Below are positions 3,918 to 63,377 of a stretch of DNA of 64,000 nt, piece after piece. Position 1 is the stretch's first letter; the number at the start of each line of letters is the position of its first letter. The notes beneath the pieces were generated by a model. It worked only from the letters and a program-made list of their open reading frames with translations. It was not told the DNA's origin and searched no databases. This DNA comes from Patescibacteria group bacterium. Its GTDB lineage: Bacteria; Patescibacteriota; Minisyncoccia; Minisyncoccales; JAHCRE01. The stretch spans positions 28,138 through 92,137 of the forward strand of contig JAHCRF010000002.1 of assembly GCA_020148055.1 (NCBI GenBank), given 5' to 3'. The position numbers and the translations under genes were made by a program.

Positions 3918-4024
3918 TCGTAGAATTCAGGATTTAGAATTTAGGGTTCAGGTTTTTAGTTTGTAATAATTTTTTACTAAGCTTCAGAACCTAGGCGCTA
4001 TATTCTAAATTCTATATCCTAAAA
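3918..4024. repeat. period-7 repeat hairpin filling the rpmJ-rpsM spacer
   Basis: 3921-3962 reads tagaatt/caggatt/tagaatt/tagggtt/caggttt/ttagttt. 3981-4024 carries the imperfect complement (..tattcta/aattcta/tatccta..). Confidence 0.55.
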
Positions 4025-6823: not shown

Positions 6824-8599
6824 TTATTCCAAGATTGCTCTGATCCGCCTTACCCCCGCGCCCGATGAGTCTTCTCTAATGATTTTAAATCTACCTAATT
6901 CTGAAGTTCTTTTGATATGGGGGCCAGCGCAAATTTCTTTTGAAAAAACTTGGCCTGAGGGATCCGAAGGGTCACCTATTGAATAAACACTGACAATTTT
7001 AGGATATTTTTCTTTGAAAAAAGCGAGAGCGCCTGATTTTAAGGCCCGCTCATAAGACATTTCTTCTTTCTTTATCTTCAAATCTTTTTTTATTTTTTGA
7101 TTAACTAAATCTTCAACTTTTTTAATCTCCTCAGTTGTTATTTTTTGGGGATGGGAAAAATCAAAACGAAGTCTTTGAGGACTAATGTCTGAACCCATTT
7201 GTTTAACATGAGATCCTAGAATTTTTCTTAAAGCGGCGTGGAGTAAATGGGTTGCGCTATGGAGTTTAGTAGCTTCATAAGTTGCTTCTCTTCCCACTCC
7301 TCCAAATTTTTTCTCTACTCCTGCCCGAGAAATTTCCCGATGTTTTTCAAGGGCTTTTTTAAATCCTTCAATATCAATTTCCAATTTTCTTTCTTTAGCT
7401 AATTCTTGAGTCAGTTCTAAAGGAAATCCATAAGTATCGAAAAGATGAAAGGCGTCAATTCCTGAAATCTTTCCTTTCGCTGAAATCTTTTCAAACTGTT
7501 TCAGGCCTCGTTTGAGAGTCTTTCCAAATTTCTCTTCTTCATTTTGAATAATGGTTAAAATATCAGCTTGTCGTGATCGGAGTTCAGGATAAATATCTCT
7601 GTAAATTTCAATAACTTTTTGAGCTAAAGAAATTAAAAAATTTTTAGGCAAATTTAATAATCTCCCAAATCTAATTGCCCTTCTTAAAATTCTTCGCAAA
7701 ACATATCCCCTTTCTACATTTGAAGGGAGAATTCCTTCTGACGCTAAGAAAACCGAACCTCTGGTGTGATCAGTAATAATTCTATAAGGGATAGGATTAA
7801 GAGAATAGGGTTTAGAAGAATTTTTTGAAATTTCCTTAATAACTGGCTCGAATAAATCGGTCTCATAGACTGAGGGTTTTTTCTGACAAATCATAGCTAA
7901 TCTTTCCAATCCCATACCAGTATCAACTCCCTTTGGTTTTAAAGGACTTAATTTTCCATTCTTATTCTGATAATATTCATTAAAAACTAAGTTCCAGAGT
8001 TCAATAAATCTACCACAGTCACAATTTGGAATACAATTTTTTCCTTTCTGACATGATTCGCCAATTAAATCATAGTGAATCTCAATTGTTGGGCCACAGG
8101 GTCCTTCTTGACCAGTTGGTCCCCAGAAATTTTCTTTAATACCGAACTTGTAAATTCTGTTTTTTGAAACCCCTATTTTTTTCAAAATTTCTAAAGATTC
8201 TTTATCTTCTGGAATATTTTCCTCACCTTTAAAGTAGGTAAACCATAATTTTGAGAGAGGGATTTTAAAATTTTTGGTTAAAAGTTCAAAAGCCAATTCA
8301 GTTGTCTCTTTCTTAAAATAATCTCCGAAGCTAAAATTTCCTAACATTTCAAGAAAAATTAAATGTTTAGTATCACCGACTTCTTCAATATCAGAAGTTC
8401 TGAAGCATTTCTGACAGGAAGTAACTTTATTTCCATAAGGAGAGGATTTTCCTAAGAAATATTCTTTAAACTGCTGCATCCCGGCGGTGGTAAATAGAAC
8501 AGTAGGATCTGATGGCAAAAGCGAAGAAGACGGTACAATTTTATGTCCTCTTTTTTCAAAAAAACCCAAAAATTTTTTTCGAATTTCCAAGGATTTCAT
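6824..8599 (-). CDS. alaS: alanine--tRNA ligase, short form (591 aa; catalytic, tRNA-recognition and editing domains, no C-Ala domain)
   Basis: MKSLEIRKKFLGFFEKRGHKIVPSSSLLPSDPTVLFTTAGMQQFK, FEMLGNFSFGDYFK, editing-domain HSATHLLHAALRKILG...CAGPH; protein ends right after the editing domain. Confidence 0.9.
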   Translation of the reverse strand: MKSLEIRKKFLGFFEKRGHKIVPSSSLLPSDPTVLFTTAGMQQFKEYFLGKSSPYGNKVTSCQKCFRTSDIEEVGDTKHLIFLEMLGNFSFGDYFKKETTELAFELLTKNFKIPLSKLWFTYFKGEENIPEDKESLEILKKIGVSKNRIYKFGIKENFWGPTGQEGPCGPTIEIHYDLIGESCQKGKNCIPNCDCGRFIELWNLVFNEYYQNKNGKLSPLKPKGVDTGMGLERLAMICQKKPSVYETDLFEPVIKEISKNSSKPYSLNPIPYRIITDHTRGSVFLASEGILPSNVERGYVLRRILRRAIRFGRLLNLPKNFLISLAQKVIEIYRDIYPELRSRQADILTIIQNEEEKFGKTLKRGLKQFEKISAKGKISGIDAFHLFDTYGFPLELTQELAKERKLEIDIEGFKKALEKHREISRAGVEKKFGGVGREATYEATKLHSATHLLHAALRKILGSHVKQMGSDISPQRLRFDFSHPQKITTEEIKKVEDLVNQKIKKDLKIKKEEMSYERALKSGALAFFKEKYPKIVSVYSIGDPSDPSGQVFSKEICAGPHIKRTSELGRFKIIREDSSGAGVRRIRAILE

Positions 8600-11949: not shown

Positions 11950-12051
11950 AAATTAAGTTAAAAATTAAAAGTGAAAAATTTAAAATTATAATTTAAAATA
12001 TCAACTTTCGATTATTATAACAAAAACAAGGAATAATGAATAGTGAATAAC

Positions 12052-16285: not shown

Positions 16286-16828
16286 CTAGCCAGCGGTTAC
16301 TACTTTCTTTCCTGGCTTTCTTTTAATTACTTCCCCAAGATATTTAATTCCTTTTCCCTTATAGGGTTCAGGGGGACGAACTTTTCTTATTTTTGCAGTA
16401 ATCTGGCCAACTAATTCTTTATTAATTCCCGAAACTGTAATAACATTTTTATCAACCGAGAATTTTATCCCTTTGGGAGTTTTTATTTTTACCGGATGAG
16501 TAAAACCAACTCGCAAAACTAATTCCTCACCTTCAAGGACGGCTTTAAACCCTAAACCCTCGATTACCAATTTTTTTTCGTACCCTGTGATTACCCCTTT
16601 AACGTTATTGGCCAAAAGGGATCGAGTCAAACCCCAAAAAGCCCTGGTCTTCTTAGTTTCAATTTGAGGAGAAACAAAAATCTTTCCCTCCTTTATTTCA
16701 ACTTTAATTTCCGGTCGAATTTTCAGGCATTGCTCCCCTTTAGGACCTTTAATAGTCACCAGATTTCCACTAATTTTTACTTCTACCTCTTTCGGTATTT
16801 CAATTGGTTTTTTACCTATTCTAGACAT
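16286..16828 (-). CDS. rplF: 50S ribosomal protein L6
   Basis: [31 protein letters not shown]...[11 protein letters not shown]. Confidence 0.95.
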
Positions 16829-16854
16829 ATGAATTTAGAATTATGAATTATGAA

Positions 16855-16988
16855 GCGAGGGAAACAATTTTTATGGACCATCCGCAGCGAGTTGGCATGG
16901 TCTCGCCGAAGGCGAGCAACTCGCGAGGAAAGGAGCTTGCTTCTCGCTGGGAAGCAGAGCGTGTCCTAAAAATTGTGTTCCCGAGCGG
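16855..16988 (-). repeat. ~135-nt structured intergenic element, copy A (rpsH-rplF spacer)
   Basis: Shares conserved blocks and hairpin architecture with 23615-23753 and 28704-28838; see findings. Strand assigned from the host operon only. Confidence 0.75.
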
Positions 16989-16989
16989 C

Positions 16990-17409
16990 CTACCAAATTT
17001 CGCATATCACCTCTCCTCCCAATTTTTGTTTTCTTATCTCCCTATCAGTCATTAAGCCTTCGGGAGTTGAAACTATAACCATCCCATATCCTCCCCGAAC
17101 TTTTTTAATTTTTTTATAGGAAAGGTAAATTCTTTGACCAGGTTTTGAAATCCTCTTCAGATTAGAAATAGCAGGCCGCCTTTGGCGAGCCTCGCCTTCG
17201 GCGGAAGTTTTTTCGATATATTTTAAGGTGATTCTAATAATTTTTTTTGCTTTCTTCCCTTTTTTTTCAAATTTTTCAATAAATCCCTCCTTTGCTAGAA
17301 TTTGAATAATCCTGTATTTAATTTGAGAAAAAGGAATGTCAACCGTGGGATGAAAAACGGCCTGGGCATTTCTTATTCGATTGAGAAGGTCGGTAATAGG
17401 ATCAGTCAT
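16990..17409 (-). CDS. rpsH: 30S ribosomal protein S8
   Basis: MTDPITDLLNRIRNAQ...ISKPGQRIY...GGYGMVIVSTPEGLMTDREIRKQKLGGEVICEIW. Confidence 0.95.
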   Translation of the reverse strand: MTDPITDLLNRIRNAQAVFHPTVDIPFSQIKYRIIQILAKEGFIEKFEKKGKKAKKIIRITLKYIEKTSAEGEARQRRPAISNLKRISKPGQRIYLSYKKIKKVRGGYGMVIVSTPEGLMTDREIRKQKLGGEVICEIW

Positions 17410-18982: not shown

Positions 18983-19079
18983 CTGAGAATTACGAATTAG
19001 GAATAAAGAATAAGGATATATCGTTCTCATAATTCATAATTCATTATTCATTATTCATTATTCATTATTCATTATTCTA
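18983..19079. repeat. period-7 repeat hairpin filling the rpsQ-rplN spacer
   Basis: ctgagaa/ttacgaa/ttaggaa/taaagaa/taaggat versus ttctcat/aattcat/aattcat followed by tattcat x4 and tattcta. Confidence 0.6.
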
Positions 19080-22847: not shown

Positions 22848-22920
22848 GAATGTTTAATTAATGTCTAATACTGGAATGTCTAAGTTAAATTTAGTCATTT
22901 GTCATTAGAAATTAGTCATT
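22848..22920. repeat. period-7 repeat hairpin in the rplD-rplW spacer
   Basis: gaatgtttaattaatgtctaatactggaatgtctaag versus ttagtca/tttgtca/ttagaaa/ttagtca (aatgtctaa pairs with ttagtcatt with one G-U). Confidence 0.45.
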
Positions 22921-23560
22921 TCATAAAAGTCTCTTTTATTACTTTTAGTGCTTCTTTTGGTATCAGTAAATATTTAAAAGAAAGTAAATCTAAAACATTA
23001 AGATTGCGAGCTTCAATGGTTTGGAGATTTGGAATATTTCTAGCAGCCAAAATTACATTTTCATCCTTTTGAGGAAGGGCAACAAGAACACTTCCTTTTT
23101 TAAAATCTTTGATTTTTGACCTTAAATTTTCTATTATTTCAGCCATTAATTTTGTTTTTGGCTTTTCGATTTTCAAGAAATCTAAAGAAATAAGTAATTT
23201 CTCTTTTGCCTTAGCCGACAAAACCATAAACAAAGCCTTTCTTCTCATTTTTTTAGGAATTTTCTTTTTAAAAACTCGTTCTTTTGTTGGCCCAAAAGTT
23301 ACCCCGCCGCCTCGCCAAATGGGTGAGCGAATTGAACCATGTCTGGCTCTTCCTGTTCCTTTTTGTCGCCAAGGTTTTCTACCTCCTCCTCTCGCTTCAG
23401 CCCTTGTTTTAGTATGAGCAATAACTTTCCTTCTATTTGCCATCTGAGAGACAGCAATCTGATGAACTAAATCAGGATTTGCTGGAAGCTCAAAAATTTC
23501 CTTAGGTAATCTCGTTTGTCCAATTTTTTCTCCTTTTTGATTATAAGTATTGATGAGCAT
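22916..23560 (-). CDS. rplD: 50S ribosomal protein L4
   Basis: RGGGRKPWRQKGTGRARHGSIRSPIWRGGGVTFGP. Confidence 0.95.
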   Translation of the reverse strand: MLINTYNQKGEKIGQTRLPKEIFELPANPDLVHQIAVSQMANRRKVIAHTKTRAEARGGGRKPWRQKGTGRARHGSIRSPIWRGGGVTFGPTKERVFKKKIPKKMRRKALFMVLSAKAKEKLLISLDFLKIEKPKTKLMAEIIENLRSKIKDFKKGSVLVALPQKDENVILAARNIPNLQTIEARNLNVLDLLSFKYLLIPKEALKVIKETFMK

Positions 23561-23614
23561 AATTTAATTTGTTATCGGGCGGACGCTAAATGTCCGTTTT
23601 TTATTTCTCCTTAA

Positions 23615-23753
23615 GCGAGGGAAGTAATTTTTAGGAGCATCCGCAGGCAAATTTGCTTGGTGTTTCGACGAAGTCGAAACAAATTTGCCGAGGACCTGAG
23701 TGAGCTCATCGCTGGAATGAGCGAGAGTATCCTAAAAATTAGCTTCCTGAGCG
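23615..23753 (-). repeat. ~135-nt structured intergenic element, copy B (rplC-rplD spacer; overlaps the rplC 3' end)
   Basis: Same conserved blocks as copies A and C. The inner helices have different sequence but keep pairing (GGCAAATTTG/CAAATTTGCC, TTTCGAC-gaa-GTCGAAA, GCTCAT-cgctgga-ATGAGC). Confidence 0.75.
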
Positions 23754-24335
23754 AATCTCTAATAATGTTCCTCTTCTTCCAGGGATGGCTCCTTTTACAG
23801 CCATTAGATTCTTCTCTTTATCAATTTTAATTATTTCTAAATTTTTGACCGTTATTCTCCGATAACCCATTCTTCCAGGCATTTTTTTTCCCTTAATTAC
23901 TCTTTGGGGCCAACGCGATCCAATTGAACCAGGAGTTCTCAGTTCATGCTTTACTCCATGGCTAGCCGGTCCGCCGGCGAAATGCCATCTTTTAACTACA
24001 CCGGCAAAACCTTTTCCCTTACTGAGGCCTGAAACCGAGACTTTCCCTCCCTCTTGAAAAGATGAAACATCAATTTCTTGTCCTATTTTATATTTTGAAA
24101 TGTCCTCTTTGAATTCTCGTAAATATCTAAAGGGTTTTTCTTTTTGTGGTTTTTTTATTTTTTTCGCTTTTAATTTTTTAAACCCAATTTGAATAGCTTC
24201 GTAACCATCTTTCTCTTTTGTCCTTATCTGGGTAATATAACAAGGACCGGTCTCAATTAAAGTTATCGGAATTACTTTTCCTTTTTCGTCAAAAATCTGA
24301 CTCATTTCCAATTTTAATCCAAGAATAAATTTCAT
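23739..24335 (-). CDS. rplC: 50S ribosomal protein L3
   Basis: GKGFAGVVKRWHFAGGPASHG...GSIGSRWPQRVIKGKKMPGRMG. Confidence 0.95.
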   Translation of the reverse strand: MKFILGLKLEMSQIFDEKGKVIPITLIETGPCYITQIRTKEKDGYEAIQIGFKKLKAKKIKKPQKEKPFRYLREFKEDISKYKIGQEIDVSSFQEGGKVSVSGLSKGKGFAGVVKRWHFAGGPASHGVKHELRTPGSIGSRWPQRVIKGKKMPGRMGYRRITVKNLEIIKIDKEKNLMAVKGAIPGRRGTLLEIRSGS

Positions 24336-24885: not shown

Positions 24886-24959
24886 GAATAATGAATTATG
24901 AATCACGAATCACGAGAAAAAATATTCATTCTTAATTCATAATTCTTGATTCGTAATTC
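24886..24959. repeat. period-7 repeat hairpin filling the tuf-rpsJ spacer
   Basis: gaataat/gaattat/gaatcac/gaatcac versus attcatt/cttaatt/cataatt/cttgatt/cgtaatt (GAATTATGAATCACGAATCA vs GAATTACGAATCAAGAATTA, 17 of 20). Confidence 0.6.
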
Positions 24960-26167: not shown

Positions 26168-26266
26168 TAGAATTATGAATAATGAATGAAGAATAATGAA
26201 TCGTTAAACCTATAATAACCAGAGGCGATGTATTCTTAATTCATAATTCTCAATCCATAATTCAAG
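26168..26266. repeat. period-7 repeat hairpin immediately upstream of tuf
   Basis: tagaattatgaataatgaatgaagaataatgaatcg versus cgatgtattcttaattcataattctcaatccataattcaag; 12-nt exact complement agaattatgaat. Confidence 0.6.
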
Positions 26267-28191: not shown

Positions 28192-28692
28192 TTAAGGGCC
28201 TAATAATTCTTTTACTATTTTACTTACCAAGCCCCCTTCTGCCTTACCTTTTACTTTTGGCATCAAAACTCCCATTACCCTGCCTATATCTTTAATATTA
28301 ATAGCCCCAATTTCCTCAATTATTTCTTCTGCCAGTCTTTTAATCTCCTCTTCAGAAAGAAGTCCTGGTAAATATTTCTTTAAAATTTCCATTTCCCTTT
28401 TTTCTTTTTCTACCAGATCCATCCTTTCCCCTTTTTTAAATTCTACTATTGCCTCTTTTCTCTTTTTTACTTCAGAAAAGATTACTTCGATTATCTCTTC
28501 ATCTGTTAATTGACTTTCTTTTTCCAAATCTTTTTCTTTTAAATTCGGTTTCTCCTTACTTAATTTATATCTTTTCTTTTTTTCCCGATTTAAGATAGCG
28601 GCATTTAACATCCTTAAGGTTGAAATTTCAATTTCTTTTTTTTCCTTTAAGATTTTTTTAAAATCTTTTCGAATTTTTTCTTTTAAGGTCAT
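28192..28692 (-). CDS. GatB/YqeY domain protein
   Basis: ISTLRMLNAAILNREK...LTDEEIIEVIFSEVKKRKEAIVEFKKGERMDLVEKEKREMEILKKYLP...DIGRVMGVLMPKVKGKAEGGLVSKIVKELL. Confidence 0.8.
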   Translation of the reverse strand: MTLKEKIRKDFKKILKEKKEIEISTLRMLNAAILNREKKKRYKLSKEKPNLKEKDLEKESQLTDEEIIEVIFSEVKKRKEAIVEFKKGERMDLVEKEKREMEILKKYLPGLLSEEEIKRLAEEIIEEIGAINIKDIGRVMGVLMPKVKGKAEGGLVSKIVKELLGP

Positions 28693-28703
28693 TTACCGTT
28701 AGA

Positions 28704-28838
28704 GCAAAGGAAATAATTTTTAGGAGCATCTGGAGCCGAGCGGGCACGGTGTCGCCGAAGGCGACGAGCGAGGCGAGGAAAGGAACGAGCGAGCGCGCTG
28801 GGCGAGTGAGCGTATCCTAAAAATTAGCTTCCCGAGCA
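28704..28838 (-). repeat. ~135-nt structured intergenic element, copy C (rpsU / yqeY-like spacer)
   Basis: gcaaaggaaataatttttaggagcatctggag...gtcgccgaaggcgac...cgaggaaaggaac...gcgctgggcga...gcgtatcctaaaaattagcttcccgagca; fills 135 of the 147 spacer nt. Confidence 0.75.
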
Positions 28839-28839
28839 C

Positions 28840-29061
28840 TCATTTTTTAAGTTTTCCTAATTTTCTCAATTTTTCGTATTCTTTTTTTAACTCCTCTCTT
28901 CTGAGAGCTGCTCTTCTTTTAGCTTCCCCGGATTTTTTTCTTTGTTTAAATCTTATTTTTCTTTTCCGGACCAAAATCCCGCTTTCTTTAATACTTCTTG
29001 TAAAGCGGCGAACTAAACTATGAGAGCTCTCTTTTCCTCGACGATGAATTTTCAAAGCCAT
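28840..29061 (-). CDS. rpsU: 30S ribosomal protein S21
   Basis: MALKIHRRGKESSHSLVRRFTRSIKESGILVRKRKIRFKQRKKSGEAKR. The internal ATG 29061 is chosen because the track ORF start overlaps the HIT gene. Confidence 0.85.
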   Translation of the reverse strand: MALKIHRRGKESSHSLVRRFTRSIKESGILVRKRKIRFKQRKKSGEAKRRAALRREELKKEYEKLRKLGKLKK

Positions 29062-29068
29062 GTTAAAA

Positions 29069-29407
29069 TTAAATATTGTGCATTGGAATTTTATCCTTCC
29101 AGCCACCTAAGAGATGCAAATGGATATGGGTAATGTGTCCGGTTTTACCTACATTGAAGATGAGTTTATAAGCTTCGTCAATCTTTTGTTGAACAGCAAT
29201 TTTCTTAGCAACAGAGATAAGTCTGGCCAACAGCTGTAAATCTTTTTGATCAAACTCACCTTTCCATTCAACGTGTCTTTTTGGTATAAAAAGTAAATGA
29301 ACAGGAGCTTCTGGCTGGATATTCTCGAGACCTAAAATTTCTTCATCTTCATAAACAATATCTGAAGGGGTTTCTTTCTTAATAATTTTACAGAATAAGC
29401 AATCCAT
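29069..29407 (-). CDS. HIT (histidine triad) family protein
   Basis: CLFCKII...PEAPVHLLFIPKRH...GHITHIHLHLLGG. Confidence 0.9.
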   Translation of the reverse strand: MDCLFCKIIKKETPSDIVYEDEEILGLENIQPEAPVHLLFIPKRHVEWKGEFDQKDLQLLARLISVAKKIAVQQKIDEAYKLIFNVGKTGHITHIHLHLLGGWKDKIPMHNI

Positions 29408-34391: not shown

Positions 34392-35261
34392 ATGGAGGAA
34401 ATAAAAAAAATTTCAATTGAGGATAACAATTATCCAAAACTTTTAAAGAAGATTAAAAATCCACCAAAAATTCTTTATTATTTAGGTGAGATGAAAGCTG
34501 AAGAACCATGTTTTGCAATTGTTGGCACTAGAAGATTTTCTCCTTATGGAAAAAGAATTGCTTTAGAAATTGCTGGAGACTTAGCCGAAGCCGGACTAAC
34601 TATTGTTTCAGGTTTAGCTCCTGGAATTGATACCTTTGTTCACCAGGCAACAATTGAAGAGGAGAAAAGAACAATTGCTATTTTGGGCACTGGGCTTGAT
34701 GAAAAAAGTATTTATCCTCAATCTAACTTAAAACTAGCTAAAAAAATTTTGGAATTAGGAGGTTGTCTAATTTCTGAATACCCCCCGGGAACTCGGGGAA
34801 CCCAATTTACTTTCCCTCAAAGAAATAGAATAATTTCAGGAATTTCTTTGGGCGTATTAGTAGTTGAAGCAAAAGAGAGAAGTGGGGCCTTAATTACTGC
34901 TAATTGGGCAAAGACACAGAATCGGAAGGTTTTTGCCATTCCTGGCTCAATTCATTCTTCAAATTCAAAGGGCTGTCATCTCCTGATTAAAAAAGGAGCT
35001 AAATTGGTAGAAAATGCTAACAACATCATAAAAGAACTAAATCTCCCTCATTTGAAGCGGAAGTTTAAACAGGAATTTGAGGGAGAAAATATTGAGGAAA
35101 ATTTAATTTTAGAGGCCCTAAAAGAAGACGCCTTGTATATTGACAAAATTATTGAGAAAACAAAACTTGAAGCTTCAACAGTGGCGAGCACCCTTGCAAT
35201 AATGGAAATAAAAGGTACAGTAAGAAACTTAGGAGGTAATAATTATGCGTTGGCGCGCTAA
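34392..35261 (+). CDS. dprA: DNA processing protein DprA
   Basis: AIVGTRRFSPYG, SGLAPGIDTFVHQA, FPQRNRIISGISLGVLVVEAKERSGALITA, VFAIPGS. Confidence 0.9.
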   Translation: MEEIKKISIEDNNYPKLLKKIKNPPKILYYLGEMKAEEPCFAIVGTRRFSPYGKRIALEIAGDLAEAGLTIVSGLAPGIDTFVHQATIEEEKRTIAILGTGLDEKSIYPQSNLKLAKKILELGGCLISEYPPGTRGTQFTFPQRNRIISGISLGVLVVEAKERSGALITANWAKTQNRKVFAIPGSIHSSNSKGCHLLIKKGAKLVENANNIIKELNLPHLKRKFKQEFEGENIEENLILEALKEDALYIDKIIEKTKLEASTVASTLAIMEIKGTVRNLGGNNYALAR

Positions 35262-37369: not shown

Positions 37370-37457
37370 GCCGCGGTGCTGGAACTGGAAGACAGGATGG
37401 ACTCAAAATCCATTGTCCCAAAAGGACGTGTGGGTTCAATTCCCACCCGCGGCACCA
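37370..37457 (+). tRNA. tRNA-Leu (anticodon CAA), long variable arm, genomically encoded CCA
   Basis: Acceptor GCCGCGG/CCGCGGC, anticodon stem-loop ATGGA-CTCAAAA-TCCAT, variable arm TGTCCCAAAAGGACG, T arm GTGGG-TTCAATT-CCCAC, discriminator A + CCA. Confidence 0.9.
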
Positions 37458-47135: not shown

Positions 47136-47169
47136 ATAAAAAATAGGCGTTAAAGCAATTTTTAACGCC
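47136..47169 (-). terminator. intrinsic terminator upstream of glmS / after the 99-aa ORF
   Basis: Minus strand GGCGUUAAA-aauugc-UUUAACGCC followed by UAUUUUUAU; the hairpin overlaps the ORF stop codon. Confidence 0.6.
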
Positions 47170-47461
47170 TTCTGGAAACTAACTTGCTGGCTGTTGTGCT
47201 CAGTAAGACCTCGACATCTTTTGCCCATTCTGCATCTTCTGTTTTTTTCTTCCCAGATGTAGATTTTGGACACAGCTTACAAAGTTTGTGTCCGGAATAC
47301 TCTCTAAAACATTTGCTATCTTTGTATTTTTCATAGCAAATCATTATCCATTCTTCATCAGATAGTCCCTTTTCTTTTTTTTCTTTCAGGGTTGGGACAA
47401 TTATCTCCTTTTTAGGTTCCTCTAATTCCCACCTCCATCCAACAATTTCTCTCCTTTTCAA
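47162..47461 (-). CDS. hypothetical Cys-containing protein (99 aa)
   Basis: ORF ending in a terminator; CYEKYKDSKCFREYSGHKLCKLCP; no family recognised. Confidence 0.4.
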   Translation of the reverse strand: MKRREIVGWRWELEEPKKEIIVPTLKEKKEKGLSDEEWIMICYEKYKDSKCFREYSGHKLCKLCPKSTSGKKKTEDAEWAKDVEVLLSTTASKLVSRRR

Positions 47462-56724: not shown

Positions 56725-57393
56725 TTATCTTCCAACTATCACTACAAACTCTCCTTTTATTTTCTCTTTTTTGATTTTTTTTATCACTTCATTAATTTTT
56801 CCTCGATAAATTGTCTCAAACTTTTTTGTTAACTCTCTGGCTACAACCATTCTCAATCCATAATTCATACTGCGTAATTCATTTAAAGTCTTTAAAATTC
56901 GATATGGTGATTCGTAAAATATAACCGGATATTCTGACTCTAAAACTTTTTTAAAAAAATTTTTCCTTTTTCTTTTTGTGGGTGGAAATCCTAAAAATAA
57001 AAATTTATTCATCGGAAATCCTGAAATCGAAGCTACACAAGTAACTGCTGAAGGACCAGGAATCGGAACTATTGTTAAATTGTTACATTGTTTCATTGCC
57101 GCACTGATTAATTTATTGCCCGGGTCAGAGATCCCAGGAGTTCCAGCATCAGAAACCAGAGCTAAATTTTTTCCCTTTTTTAAGAGATCTAAAATATAAT
57201 TTATCTTCTTTAACCTACTATGTTGATGATAACTTAAAGTTTTTGTCTTTGTATTATAATAATTCAATAATTTCTTTGTCACCCTTGTGTCTTCGCATAA
57301 AATTAAATCAACCTCCTTTAAAATTCGGAGGGCGCGAGATGAAAGATCTTCTAAATTTCCAATTGGAGTGGCAACAATATATAAAATAGCCAT
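56725..57393 (-). CDS. rsmI: 16S rRNA (cytidine1402-2'-O)-methyltransferase
   Basis: LYIVATPIGNLEDLSSRALRILKEVDLILCEDTR. Confidence 0.9.
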   Translation of the reverse strand: MAILYIVATPIGNLEDLSSRALRILKEVDLILCEDTRVTKKLLNYYNTKTKTLSYHQHSRLKKINYILDLLKKGKNLALVSDAGTPGISDPGNKLISAAMKQCNNLTIVPIPGPSAVTCVASISGFPMNKFLFLGFPPTKRKRKNFFKKVLESEYPVIFYESPYRILKTLNELRSMNYGLRMVVARELTKKFETIYRGKINEVIKKIKKEKIKGEFVVIVGR

Positions 57394-61415: not shown

Positions 61416-63377
61416 TTATTGATTAACAGCAATTATGACAAGATTTCTTTGTCCAAGGACTGCTCTTGCTGAACCATCTCCTGTTCTATCAGAACCCTGA
61501 ATACGTATAGTATAGGTTCCCGGGCTAACTGCATAAGTACACATTGTCTGAAAATTATCTGCCCAGCGACCTCCTCCACCAGCAGCAGTTGGAGATTCGT
61601 GTTGTCGGACACTTCCAGAACAGGCAGTTCCACCTACAGTTATTCTATAGTAACCCCAACTATGAGGCTCGGCGAATTGGATGAATGGAACACTATCGTC
61701 GCGGTAATTAATTTGACCTGAAGCCCATATCATTAAGAGACTATTTTGAGTAACGGTTATACTTTTCCATAAATTCGGATCATTATAATAAGTCCCGGCA
61801 CCGTCGCTTTCTGGTATATCCCAGCCGCCTGTTTCTACATCGTATGCATATGGGGGTTTAAGACTAGTTATCCCATCTATCCTTGTCCCACCTTCAAAAT
61901 CTCCTGCATAGTTTACTACTAAAACATCACTGTTATCATGTACTAATGCCCTCTGATTTGGTTTTGAACCAATACTTCTGCCATCATTAAGACCCATTTT
62001 AAAATCTGAACCATCCATATATATCCAACCACCTAACTTGACATCACTATTAACTCTTATATTACCCGCAACTTGTAGTTTTTCTCCTGGACTCTCCGTC
62101 CCGATGCCAACGTTGCCGTTATCTCCAAAAATTAAACTACCATCTGAACCTAATCTGATTCCAGCTCGGTCGCTATTTTGCATTCCGTATATTCCAAGAG
62201 TATTGGCTACATCTATGTCCGTTAAATAACTATCGTCTCCGATGATGAGATTCTGGCCTCCAGCTGCGAATATATCCATTGCTCTTATTGTGCCAGAAAC
62301 ATCTAACTTATAGGTTGGACTGATTGTTCCAATGCCAACTTTCCAGGCAGTATTATTGGGATAGAGGTTTAAACCAGATTGGGTCCAATAACCTACTCCA
62401 CCAGAAGGCCAGGTATCCCGACAATCATCTTTCATACAAAGATAATTGGCTCTGATACTATTGTTTCCCCAGGTACCATCAGATTCTAAAACTCTAATTC
62501 CTGTTGAACCTCTAAAATCAATGTAGCCATTGTTGTAATCATAAAATCCACCATCATCTGAAATCCAGATACCACCGCCTCCAGTATTCCTTCTATTGGC
62601 ATAGAGCATGTCAGCATTTGAGCCTACCATTTCATAACCATCTACTTGAAATCCATTATCAGCTCGAACCATTTTATTAACATATATATCTTTATTACCG
62701 TATGAACGAATCCAAGTAGTATCTATCATATACCATCCACCACCATAAGTCTGTGAGTACCAACCTGTATTACCATAAGTTCTGACCCAACCGCCTCCAT
62801 CATCACGAAGAGTTCCTTCAGGAGCCACAATTGCTCCATCAACTCTCAAATTACCAGCTACATGCAATTTTTGAGCAGGACTAGTCGTCCCGATGCCGAC
62901 ATTCCAGGCAGTATTATTGGGATAGAGACGATCAGGAGCTGTAAAGTCCCAATAACCTGCTGCTGCTCCACTTTGATCTACTCCACAGATAATATCACCG
63001 GAAGCATTAGCATAGAGCTTACTGGTGATTGGATCTGAACAAGCATTAAGACCTGTAACCCGAACATTTCCAACCACATGAAGCCTTTGAGCTGGAGTGG
63101 TTGTTCCGATGCCAACCTTGCCTTGAAAGAGGGCAGAATAACCCCCAGCTCCACCAGCTGGATCAACCCACCAACTATTATCATTTGAGTCATAAAATGT
63201 TGGGAAAGAAAGCGTGCCAGTTTTAGTCTGGGCACCTCCACCAACATTTAAAGGAGCTGGAACATTCCCTCCTGGTGGACCGACTGCTGGCTCAGTCCAG
63301 GCAAGAACTAAGTAGCCAACCAAAAAACTCATTATTAAAACCCCTAAGATTAGGGCGAATGATTTTAGTTTAGACAT
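61416..63377 (-). CDS. large secreted repeat protein (tail-fibre-like VGIGT repeats)
   Basis: Signal/anchor FALILGVLIMSFLVGYLVLA|WTEP. Four copies of the (G/W)(K/N)VGIGTxxPxxxLxVxGNxRV motif. Gly/Asn/Trp/Tyr-rich beta-type sequence. Confidence 0.7.
   Translation of the reverse strand: MSKLKSFALILGVLIMSFLVGYLVLAWTEPAVGPPGGNVPAPLNVGGGAQTKTGTLSFPTFYDSNDNSWWVDPAGGAGGYSALFQGKVGIGTTTPAQRLHVVGNVRVTGLNACSDPITSKLYANASGDIICGVDQSGAAAGYWDFTAPDRLYPNNTAWNVGIGTTSPAQKLHVAGNLRVDGAIVAPEGTLRDDGGGWVRTYGNTGWYSQTYGGGWYMIDTTWIRSYGNKDIYVNKMVRADNGFQVDGYEMVGSNADMLYANRRNTGGGGIWISDDGGFYDYNNGYIDFRGSTGIRVLESDGTWGNNSIRANYLCMKDDCRDTWPSGGVGYWTQSGLNLYPNNTAWKVGIGTISPTYKLDVSGTIRAMDIFAAGGQNLIIGDDSYLTDIDVANTLGIYGMQNSDRAGIRLGSDGSLIFGDNGNVGIGTESPGEKLQVAGNIRVNSDVKLGGWIYMDGSDFKMGLNDGRSIGSKPNQRALVHDNSDVLVVNYAGDFEGGTRIDGITSLKPPYAYDVETGGWDIPESDGAGTYYNDPNLWKSITVTQNSLLMIWASGQINYRDDSVPFIQFAEPHSWGYYRITVGGTACSGSVRQHESPTAAGGGGRWADNFQTMCTYAVSPGTYTIRIQGSDRTGDGSARAVLGQRNLVIIAVNQ

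Follow-up and report, generated by a model that had tools for sequence, protein, structure and literature searches.

We describe here a family of short, structured, G+C-rich repeats that lie in the spacers between genes of Patescibacteria, the bacteria of the candidate phyla radiation (CPR), and that are gained, lost, swapped, nested and duplicated between related genomes. The window analysed is a stretch of 64,000 nt from a Patescibacteria group bacterium (assembly GCA_020148055.1, contig JAHCRF010000002.1), which holds three copies of the element, A, B and C. We interpret the CPR element as a non-autonomous, structure-dependent mobile repeat of the kind known from repetitive extragenic palindromic sequences and their pairs (REP/REPIN), enterobacterial repetitive intergenic consensus sequences (ERIC) and Rickettsia palindromic elements (RPE), probably handled as a folded single strand, and we put the probability of this reading at about 0.5. 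Selection on a folded single strand, either RNA or single-stranded DNA (ssDNA), had been proposed from the letters of the window alone (hereafter the sequence-only reading). This proposal is supported, since the copies match no Rfam family and have no target-site duplications, and both further copies and covariation were found. That outcome aside, the sequence-only reading did not foresee the mobility and turnover of the family, signs of which are clear.

All copies share the architecture of a three-way junction. The A+T-rich closing helix P1 has about 22 bp and a terminal tandem sheared G.A motif, the P2 hairpin has a bulge, GCAYGGU, and a GNA triloop, and the P3 hairpin combines a U.G pair, a bulged A and a 7-nt loop, YCGCUGG. 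The three copies in the window lie where they had been placed before, with an offset of at most 1 nt, and our covariance model, R2, scores them at 153, 103 and 93.5 bits, all on the plus strand. Direct inspection of the sequence shows their conserved blocks and closing inverted repeat, the two inner hairpins, the GAA tip and the asymmetric bulge of 7 nt. The copies are richer in G+C than their surroundings (0.47-0.57 vs 0.31-0.36). The elements and the parts of copy A are as follows.

16854-16987, plus strand: copy A, whole element, type I, subfamily with P2 = CGAGUUG, between rpsH (S8) and rplF (L6); R2 153.2 bits, E 1e-37.
16855-16878, plus strand: 5' arm of P1 in copy A, with the terminal GC step, tandem G.A/A.G (CGAG opposite CGAG), GGGAA, AAUUUUUA, a bulged U and GGAC; from folds and pair counts.
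16879-16886, plus strand: junction J1/2 of copy A, CAUCCGCA, conserved throughout the family (YnUC-GSAG, types I and II); from alignments.
16887-16924, plus strand: hairpin P2 of copy A, with the asymmetric 7-nt bulge GCAUGGU at 16895-16901 and the GAA triloop at 16908-16910; from fold and alignment.
16925-16934, plus strand: junction J2/3 of copy A, GAGGAAAGGA, family consensus CGAGRA..GA; from alignments.
16935-16960, plus strand: hairpin P3 of copy A, with the conserved U.G pair, the bulged A and the near-invariant loop YCGCUGG at 16944-16950; from fold, alignment and pair counts.
16963-16986, plus strand: 3' arm of P1 in copy A, GUCC UAAAAAUU GU, a bulged G, UUCCC, GA and GC; from fold and pair counts.
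23614-23753, plus strand: copy B, whole element, between rplC (L3) and rplD (L4); R2 103.2 bits, ORF and translation.
28703-28838, plus strand: copy C, whole element, GA-rich subfamily, between an S21-like open reading frame (ORF) of 88 amino acids (aa) and yqeY; R2 93.5 bits.

Folding z-scores of the three copies range from -3.0 to -6.6, and copy A alone folds at -62.1 kcal/mol (z -4.5). The 22-nt 3' block CCTAAAAATTNNNTTCCNGAGC occurs three times in the window against 0.34 occurrences expected by chance. A scan of the 64 kb with R2 and all filters off returned nothing above 23 bits beyond the reverse strands of the three copies and no fourth copy; a candidate at 47145-47194, obtained by repeat search at 60% identity, is a chance match by alignment and model. 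Hence, the description as a three-copy element holds within this 64-kb window but not for the family, of which about 85 members have been sampled. That the three copies resemble each other by chance, or stem from a recent local duplication devoid of function, has next to no probability. Only the small copy number in the window speaks for it; the excess of the 3' block, the roughly 85 copies in other genomes and the divergence of the copies all contradict it. A, B and C are mutually about 74% identical while copy A is 98.5% identical to its ortholog in another locus (L035; handles of this form denote our loci), in line with the earlier argument against a recent duplication.

The structure is backed by strong covariation between copies, as the sequence-only reading had supposed from three of them. 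In a hand-curated structural alignment of 48 distinct copies (A2), from which R2 was built, 94.8% of helix cells hold standard pairs, compared to 25-51% when partners are slid by 1-3 columns. Double-sided changes occur in 19 of the 41 pairs (200 cells), and none of 500 shuffles reaches the observed values. A larger alignment (A3), which was guided by the model and leans towards the model structure, has 95.1% of cells paired, compared to 30-49% in slid controls, and double-sided changes in 38 of 41 pairs (475 cells). All eight basal pairs of P2 covary. However, in long quasi-palindromes template-switch correction during replication can yield changes that only appear compensatory, and covariation alone is therefore no proof of selection at the RNA level. 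Constraint is better documented by those mismatches, bulges and junction nucleotides that are conserved than by compensatory changes on their own. This evidence is extended by a second type of element. The P1 sequence of type I was fixed by our search pattern and is subject to ascertainment; type II has a wholly different P1 (AGCGAGGCAACAAAUCCUCAAAGUA ... UACUUUGAGaCUUUGUUGCCGAGCG) of equal length, about 22 bp. Type II keeps the termini AGCGAGG/CCGAGCG, J1/2 YnUC-GSAG, the bulge GCAYGGU, J2/3 CGAGRA, the P3 loop YCGCUGG and the bulged A by the U.G pair, so that about 30 junction, loop and bulge nucleotides are common to both types. The boundary logos read R directly followed by AGCGAGGGAA at one edge and TTCCCGAGCG up to the other; the element thus starts with AGCGAGG after an R and ends with CCGAGCG, and its two ends differ consistently (GA vs TC). 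Extensions of the hairpin tips are perfectly palindromic, for example CCGCCAGCTGGCGG in L033, which suggests that processes at the DNA level shape the elements. Three further structural candidates were rejected or set aside. A cUUCGg tetraloop on the gene-sense strand is not compatible with the stem register, which permits loops of 3 or 5 nt only, and where the stem is lengthened (L018, L099) the GAA triloop is retained and no UUCG tetraloop appears. For a pseudoknot that would pair ACCAU of J1/2 with the GCAUGGU bulge there is no covariation, and the AC belongs to P1. The CGC/GCG pairing given by RNAalifold (columns 32-34 with 152-154) was set aside for an extension of P3, which covaries in the L099/L111 subfamily.

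Scanning with the exact pattern of the 3' block retrieved 24 stretches from one-genome-per-species DNA and 94 from metagenomes, and CPR copies are present in 15 of the 24 and in about 70 of the 94. All matches that carry the rest of the element come from Patescibacteria/CPR bins, labelled as Nealsonbacteria, Wildermuthbacteria, Gribaldobacteria, Parcubacteria and Saccharibacteria; at least one of the Saccharibacteria-labelled bins has the operon synteny of the window. Matches in Firmicutes, Bacteroidota, Proteobacteria and Cyanobacteria comprise the 22-mer only, lack the rest of the element and were dismissed as chance. R2 found 75 copies in 86 loci, many of them without the search pattern, and the eight syntenic operon loci added another 11; as a negative control, unrelated viral loci totalling 0.91 Mb gave none. 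A viral origin was likewise rejected, since the exact pattern has no match in IMG/VR and the 120 loci retrieved there with a loose core pattern are chance matches, none of them matched by the model. The search for further copies with a covariance model, which the sequence-only reading had advised, thus yielded about 85 in CPR genomes and metagenomes. The family is apparently restricted to CPR bacteria, and its members measure 111-250 nt, typically about 130 nt. One copy, at an S9 junction (L008, CAYJUL010000004.1), is readable in its 3' arm alone; a masked run of N, about 100 nt long and immediately upstream of the match at 7659-7680 on the minus strand, coincides almost exactly with the core of the element.

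The element matches no catalogued RNA, in keeping with the sequence-only reading, which did not recognise the family. Rfam 15 at gathering thresholds gives a single hit in the window, a tRNA at 37370-37454. Searched at E ≤ 10, copy A returns one 11-bit chance match to a long non-coding RNA (lncRNA), located in the flank, and neither copies B and C nor five loci with type I and II copies have a match on the elements at E ≤ 1. ARAGORN finds no tRNA or tmRNA-like gene in the element. Full-text literature searches, which included the conserved sequence strings, gave no description of the family within the library searched. Likenesses to the D-arm of tRNA-Tyr (UUCCCGAGCGG), to 5S rRNA (CCAUGCC.AACUC), to lambda boxA (CGCUCU) and to the Ec86 retron (UUAGCGAGAGG) were discarded as short string matches that Rfam and ARAGORN do not support. 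The CPR element family seems undescribed so far.

The clearest signs of mobility come from relatives. Eight syntenic operon loci of 20 kb were fetched with the S8 protein of the window; the S8 proteins of these relatives are 67-84% identical. Occupancy by the element is patchy among them. The S8-L6 spacer is filled in the window, L035, L242 (type II) and L245, and has no R2-type copy in L239, L241, L243, L244 and L246. In the closest relative, L239, this spacer is 90 nt long and A+T-rich, in L241 it is 45 nt with a GGAGGG Shine-Dalgarno sequence, and in L246 only 5 nt. L240 has a different G+C-rich structured insert at this position, which R2 does not match. The L3-L4 spacer is filled in the window, L239, L240, L242 and L245 and empty in L241 (5 nt) and L244 (28 nt), and other genomes have extra sites at L23-L2, SecY-Adk, L14-L24 and GalT-TIM. 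Type I and type II both start 2 nt past the stop codon at the S8 junction. In the close relatives L239 and L240 the spacers downstream of the L3-L4 element are near-identical, yet junction position and element type differ: the last L3 codons are replaced by the element in L239, just as in the window, while in L240 a different type follows the native stop codon (..EIRG(stop)). The first 13 nt of the L239 element are those of window copy B (CGCTCGGGAAGCT) and its core is different; element content appears to have been exchanged within a retained arm. L246 reads ..GAGATT CGCTCA CTTA.., and the step from CGCTCA to CTTA could be the footprint of a lost hairpin. Rearranged forms are found as well. 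Type II is nested in type I arms in L104, L083 and L015, and is followed by a solitary type I 3' arm in L013, L037 and L065; there are tandem (L069), truncated (L009) and arms-only forms of 54-63 nt (L080, L103). Two copies in L005 have a common derived insertion in P2, which points to a duplication within one genome. Subfamilies span genomes and sites, window copy A being 93.5% identical to a copy behind tuf in a Nealsonbacteria genome.

The same junctions hold other material. The first 1258 nt of L035 are 88-92% identical to the window (16286-16987) from S8 through S3, and downstream of its copy A this locus has a DnaJ-like gene in place of L6, which reflects either a rearrangement beside the element or a chimeric assembly. 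G+C-rich structured inserts that R2 does not match are located at S8-L6 in L240 (10391-10575) and at L3-L4 in L243 (3388-3611), as well as in L029/L034 and in L075/L100/L102 (L3-L4). On its gene-sense strand, the L240 insert has GA-rich motifs as well as hairpins tipped by GAA. These inserts suggest that further element families, related or not, use the same junctions, possibly in the opposite orientation. In L239 (3419-3588) and L240 (3364-3569) a remnant resembling an L4 start (ATGCTTGTTAATAC..) is followed by a G+C-rich hairpin insert of about 85 nt (CCCCGATAGTATACCCGCCTTCGGCGGATAACTACGGGG) and then by the real L4 start; a second insertion appears to have displaced the rplD start in both.

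A second set of observations concerns the placement of the element between genes. The sequence-only reading had assigned the copies to spacers of ribosomal protein (r-protein) operons, which is correct for A (S8-L6) and B (L3-L4), both in the S10/spc operon, but not for C, which lies between the 88-aa ORF and yqeY. The neighbouring genes in the window are:

16990-17409, minus strand: rpsH (S8), stop codon 2 nt from the edge of copy A; Pfam Ribosomal_S8, E 4e-43.
16286-16828, minus strand: rplF (L6), start codon 25 nt past copy A; Pfam Ribosomal_L6.
23739-24335, minus strand: rplC (L3), last five codons and stop codon supplied by copy B; Pfam Ribosomal_L3, and relatives with native ..EIRG(stop).
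22916-23560, minus strand: rplD (L4), downstream of copy B; Pfam Ribosomal_L4.
28840-29106, minus strand: 88-aa ORF upstream of copy C, stop codon 2 nt from the element; from the translation, S21-like by eye alone and without a Pfam or NCBIfam match.
28192-28692, minus strand: yqeY-family gene downstream of copy C, start codon 11 nt past the element; Pfam YqeY.

Genes for YbeY and a HIT protein lie near copy C. Across the family, both neighbours are antisense to the plus sense of the element in all 40 copies with clean ORFs on both sides. The upstream neighbour is antisense in about 65 of 66 copies and in 11 of 11 copies from the syntenic loci; in total, 76 of 77 informative copies are antisense to their flanking genes. 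One intact copy (L077:3484-3677) is inverted; it occupies the GalT-TIM junction, where copies elsewhere have the normal orientation, and A+T-rich pairs stand in place of its GC-rich termini. Relative to the edge of the element, the end of the upstream stop codon falls at -5 to +1 nt, and past the far edge it is usually 3-26 nt to the next start codon. In about ten copies the stop codon lies 14 nt inside the element, which gives the C-terminus ..RSGS(stop) or ..RSGR(stop). In copy B, the L3 frame enters the element by 15 nt and ends ..EIRSGS(stop); a native L3 end, ..EIRG(stop), is found where this junction is absent (L005, L240, L243, L245). The RSGS/RSGR tail is also added to Lys/Asn-tRNA synthetase and further proteins in other genomes. 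Except for the stop codon the flanks share no motif, and neither end has a fixed target word. Junctions recur after genes of translation (S9, L36, EF-Tu, L3, S8, S7, L23, L14) and at RNase III to S16, GalT-like to TIM, glutaredoxin to GAPDH, Lys/Asn-tRNA synthetase to SerRS, RpoB to RpoC and SecY to Adk. A gene ending in ..AAEYLRKQ(stop), at first taken for Pgk, encodes a GalT/HIT-like enzyme according to Pfam. About 45% of the sampled copies follow an r-protein or EF-Tu gene; such genes make up roughly 8%, by a rough estimate, of a CPR gene set.

This placement bears directly on a classical miniature inverted-repeat transposable element (MITE), that is, a deletion derivative of an insertion sequence (IS) with DDE transposase that moves as double-stranded DNA through terminal inverted repeats. 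P1 does resemble terminal inverted repeats of about 25 bp, and size, copy number and the patchy, interspersed distribution would fit. However, at 65 distinct sites, tested for k = 3-8 and with the boundaries moved by up to 3 nt in either direction, no target-site duplication was found, since counts do not rise above those of shuffled pairings. The near-absolute orientation bias (76 of 77), the covarying internal stems and conserved junctions, the complete difference in P1 between types I and II that keep the same core, and the consistently unlike termini also stand against it. Nor was a full-length parent IS with the same ends found among about 130 loci or in the window. We consider the classical DDE-type MITE effectively excluded.

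The orientation lock fits well with the main rival explanation, in which the element is a cis-acting RNA of the host within the polycistronic mRNA and its gene-sense transcript folds, right behind the stop codon, into a helix of about 22 bp and a three-way junction. Such an RNA could serve RNase III-like processing, stabilise the 3' end of the upstream cistron or juxtapose stop and start codons for termination-reinitiation, and mobility would then merely be the way it arrived. We regard this explanation, including the proposed roles, as possible and hold it only tentatively. Besides the orientation along transcription in 76 of 77 copies, it gains from the distance of 0-5 nt to the stop codon, from a next start codon often so near (3-26 nt) that there is no room for an unstructured leader, and from the frequency behind r-protein and EF-Tu genes. 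The length of P1, two helical turns in both types, and the higher conservation of orthologous copies compared to flanking coding DNA point the same way, as do the relatives without the element at S8-L6, whose spacer there is ordinary and contains a Shine-Dalgarno sequence, GGAGGG. The sporadic occupancy of every site among close relatives and the interchangeable element types are difficult to reconcile with this explanation; tandem, nested, truncated and arms-only forms are unexpected of a tuned regulator, and the inverted copy in L077 is intact at a site usually occupied in normal orientation. In five loci (L047, L061, L064, L066, L088) the element stands between a gene for RNase III itself (Ribonuclease_3 and dsrm domains) and rpsP (S16). 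The closing helix of about 22 bp is a plausible RNase III substrate, but its occurrence behind the RNase III gene is a curiosity and not evidence for processing.

A further argument comes from the question of which strand carries the structure. Helices pair equally well on either strand, whereas the non-canonical features set the two apart. In the plus sense of the element, the P1 terminus and the base of P2 form tandem G.A/A.G in CGAG/CGAG, P3 has the conserved U.G pair and a bulged A, the tip of P2 is a GNA triloop (GAA, GGA, AAA) that is kept in lengthened stems, and the junctions are purine-rich. In gene sense these positions read U.C/C.U, C.A with a bulged U, UUC, and pyrimidine-rich junctions, respectively. 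The plus sense folds better in 61 of 64 copies, by a mean of 5.9 kcal/mol with RNA parameters, and is also better with DNA parameters. The GC skew of the element strand is +0.13 (positive in 64 of 65 copies), compared to -0.16 for the surrounding plus strand. Because non-canonical features, folding energy and GC skew all favour the plus sense, we conclude with moderate confidence that constraint acts on the single strand antisense to the genes, be it RNA or DNA. For a host mRNA element this is a difficulty, as the strand present in mRNA would carry the U.C/C.U and C.A mismatches, the bulged U and the UUC triloop and fold about 6 kcal/mol worse. Thus, the host RNA explanation is well fitted by orientation lock and in-place conservation and poorly by strand asymmetry and sporadic, interchangeable occupancy.

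If the antisense strand is the constrained one, it could itself be a functional RNA, either an antisense or small RNA (sRNA), transcribed from every copy or from one master copy, or a new self-cleaving or ligating ribozyme behind the spread of the element. The 30 or so unpaired nucleotides conserved across types I and II despite their wholly different P1, the purine-rich single-stranded regions, the tandem G.A motifs and the conserved U.G pair would suit such an RNA. The element strand is G-rich, like structured RNA genes, and no linked protein gene was found in the window or the eight syntenic loci. We nevertheless think it unlikely. All copies are antisense in tight operon spacers, with no conserved promoter or terminator flanking them; sigma-70 promoter boxes, outward-facing or upstream, are not conserved, and P1 is unconserved between the types. 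No copy stands alone in a long intergenic region or has expression signals of its own, and none matches a ribozyme or sRNA family in Rfam. In addition, the hairpin tips are often perfect palindromes (as CCGCCAGCTGGCGG) and not typical RNA tetraloops, which hints at evolution at the DNA level.

In the reading that we prefer, a mobile repeat handled as a folded single strand, the element would be mobilised in trans as the strand antisense to the genes, as ssDNA or complementary DNA. Recognition by the mobilising enzyme would depend on the conserved junction nucleotides and termini, in the manner of REP/REPIN-RAYT or IS200/IS605 systems. Copies would survive only at sites, and in the orientation, where the operon still works: at other positions an insertion would disrupt an ORF or the short leader of the gene that follows, and position, perhaps also orientation, would reflect what compact operons tolerate. 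The closing helix may set the upstream stop codon beside the downstream start region, and the transcribed complement would form a large intercistronic hairpin that is perhaps a secondary site for RNase III-type processing or for stability. The window encodes DprA (34392-35261), which is consistent with natural transformation as a route of exchange. A bolder version assumes a mobile unit without protein gene that has a catalytic core or is the substrate of an undescribed copy-out mechanism; we consider it improbable. The abundant operon mRNA with the element would be reverse-transcribed, and the antisense ssDNA would fold as the three-way junction and join the nascent lagging strand; reverse transcription and incorporation of this kind would alone produce the orientation lock. 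Alternatively, the antisense strand might be a new self-cleaving or ligating nucleic acid.

Several observations weigh against the preferred reading. Pfam detects no transposase, HUH, reverse transcriptase (RT) or integrase domain in 59 ORFs of the window, 49 of which have at least 150 aa, and there is none among the genes of the eight 20-kb syntenic loci. At variable positions, with the conserved U.G pair excluded, G.U exceeds A.C modestly (52 vs 37). The copies within one genome are old, with A, B and C at about 74% identity. Transposons of the IS200/IS605 type are expected to have their active strand on the lagging-strand template, which for co-directional genes is the gene-sense strand and hence opposite to the strand favoured here. 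Furthermore, the element is often more conserved at orthologous sites than the adjoining, highly conserved coding DNA, as shown by the identities of element and flanking coding sequence.

Window and L035: element 98.5%, flank 90%.
L062 and L063: element 100%, flank 84%.
L110 and L025: element 99%, flank 80%.
S9 site, several pairs: element 93-96%, flank 71-77%.

Such in-place conservation fits purifying selection or a host function at least as well as mobility. Frequent re-seeding from element lineages that evolve slowly would account for it too, and other orthologous pairs have different element types, with 63% identity in the element and 81% in the flank, which favours replacement.

Comparison with known systems shows that the kind of element is known, namely structured interspersed palindromic repeats in transcribed spacers. 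What is unusual is the branched conserved core, the strict orientation, the adjacency to stop codons of essential genes, the modular nesting and the abundance in minimal genomes. Like the REP/REPIN sequences of proteobacteria with their RAYT (Y1/HUH) transposases, the CPR elements are short non-autonomous hairpin repeats, usually just 3' of genes within transcription units, that make no target duplication and persist for long; recognition as a folded single strand and not through terminal inverted repeats, as in REP, would be a further parallel. REP sequences are simple hairpins of 20-40 nt with a conserved GTAG, and REPINs are pairs of them. In contrast, the CPR unit is a three-way junction of about 130 nt with about 30 conserved unpaired nucleotides, has the termini AGCGAGG/CCGAGCG and no GTAG, is locked in its orientation to genes and shares no sequence similarity with REP. 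A Y1_Tnp domain or RAYT-like gene was found neither in the 64-kb window nor in the syntenic windows of up to 20 kb. ERIC sequences, or intergenic repeat units (IRU), of enterobacteria and vibrios, compared here by their properties, are similar in several ways: they are imperfect palindromes of about 127 bp, reside solely in transcribed intergenic regions of operons, are conserved in sequence across genera and have longer and shorter variants due to internal indels; a mobilising mechanism is not known for either. Effects of ERIC on mRNA stability are documented. ERIC differs by its occurrence in both orientations, its apparently unrelated sequence and unbranched core, the missing tie to post-stop nucleotides and its different phylum. 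RPE are palindromic repeats of 100-150 bp in reduced genomes as well, and their insertion into coding ends adds residues to essential proteins, as here the ..RSGS(stop) of L3. They are, however, inserted in-frame within ORFs and in RNA genes and are unrelated in sequence, and we know of no report of an orientation lock or stop-codon preference for RPE.

Integron attC sites resemble the element in their position directly after or overlapping the upstream stop codon and in an orientation fixed relative to ORFs. An attC site is active as its folded bottom strand, which is antisense to the ORFs, has extrahelical bases and a variable centre and measures 57-141 nt, a comparable size range. However, the boundaries of the CPR element lack R''/R' core sites (RYYYAAC / GTTRRRY), there is no integrase or attI, and the flanks are not cassettes but syntenic essential housekeeping genes (S8/L6, L3/L4, S9, L36, tuf, rpoB/rpoC). 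The RNase III intercistronic hairpins of phage T7 early mRNA (R1.1-R1.3) are also large imperfect hairpins with internal loops and a helix of about two turns. They are not interspersed repeats, and the structural features of the CPR element favour the antisense strand. Palindrome-associated elements of the IS200/IS605 type have a fixed tetra- or pentanucleotide target and dissimilar subterminal hairpins, while the element has no such target and its ends pair as one long helix. Unlike retron msr-msd, no copy examined adjoins an RT domain.

Some further features of the window touch the copies or lie apart from them. A 70-aa ORF on the plus strand (16843-17055) runs through copy A and is preceded by a Shine-Dalgarno-like GAGGG; it was rejected as coding, since its ATG is unconserved and indels are not multiples of three, and other copies do not preserve it, so that its annotation as a gene would be an error. 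The spacer that separates copy B from the L4 start holds a small hairpin with a flanking A/T run (23577-23605, plus strand; gene-sense ACGGACAUUUAGCGUCCGCCCGAUAAC), which is near-unchanged in L239, L240 and L245 despite the turnover of the adjoining element. It could be a leader or regulatory hairpin of L4 (rplD); read on the plus strand it resembles a weak intrinsic terminator. The motif GAAT recurs with a period of 7 nt (GAATnnnGAATnnnGAAT), with 27 occurrences in the window against 1.8 expected, in these blocks:

3923-4019, 12031-12048, 16831-16855, 18987-19077, 24886-24959, 26170-26263 and 56849-56866: GAAT heptads.

Mostly a plus block is followed by a minus block, which gives long A+T-rich hairpins upstream of L14, S10, EF-Tu and others; beside copy A the plus half-block stands alone. 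Analogous heptads occur between the element and the next start codon in other loci: AUUCGUA (L239, L240, L242, L062, L072), AAUGUUn (L239) and AUGCnAA (L244). The GAAT heptads may be a 5'-UTR (untranslated region) or promoter motif or a second palindromic repeat family. Finally, a 653-aa protein (61416-63377, minus strand) with a weak Shufflon_N match has four diverged repeats of about 66 nt (62049-63119), which are unrelated to the element.

Although the genomes of CPR bacteria (Patescibacteria) are among the smallest and most streamlined of all bacteria, many copies of a G+C-rich unit of 130 nt lie in their most essential operons. These include operons for ribosomal proteins, EF-Tu, RpoB-RpoC and glycolysis, and in places L3 even takes its C-terminus and stop codon from the element. 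Either a selfish element has managed to settle only a few nucleotides from stop codons while translational coupling stays intact, or the CPR bacteria have a structured module in common for processing or balancing their core operons. In practice, the covariance model can be used as a marker of the element, which yields spurious ORFs and altered gene ends in annotation and at which metagenome-assembled genomes (MAGs) of the CPR may be prone to assembly breaks and rearrangement. The strict orientation offers a handle on insertion coupled to transcription or replication. If the element should have a catalytic core, or be the substrate of an undescribed system of single-strand transposition, it would represent a new class of mobile element that is specific to the ultra-small genomes of the CPR.

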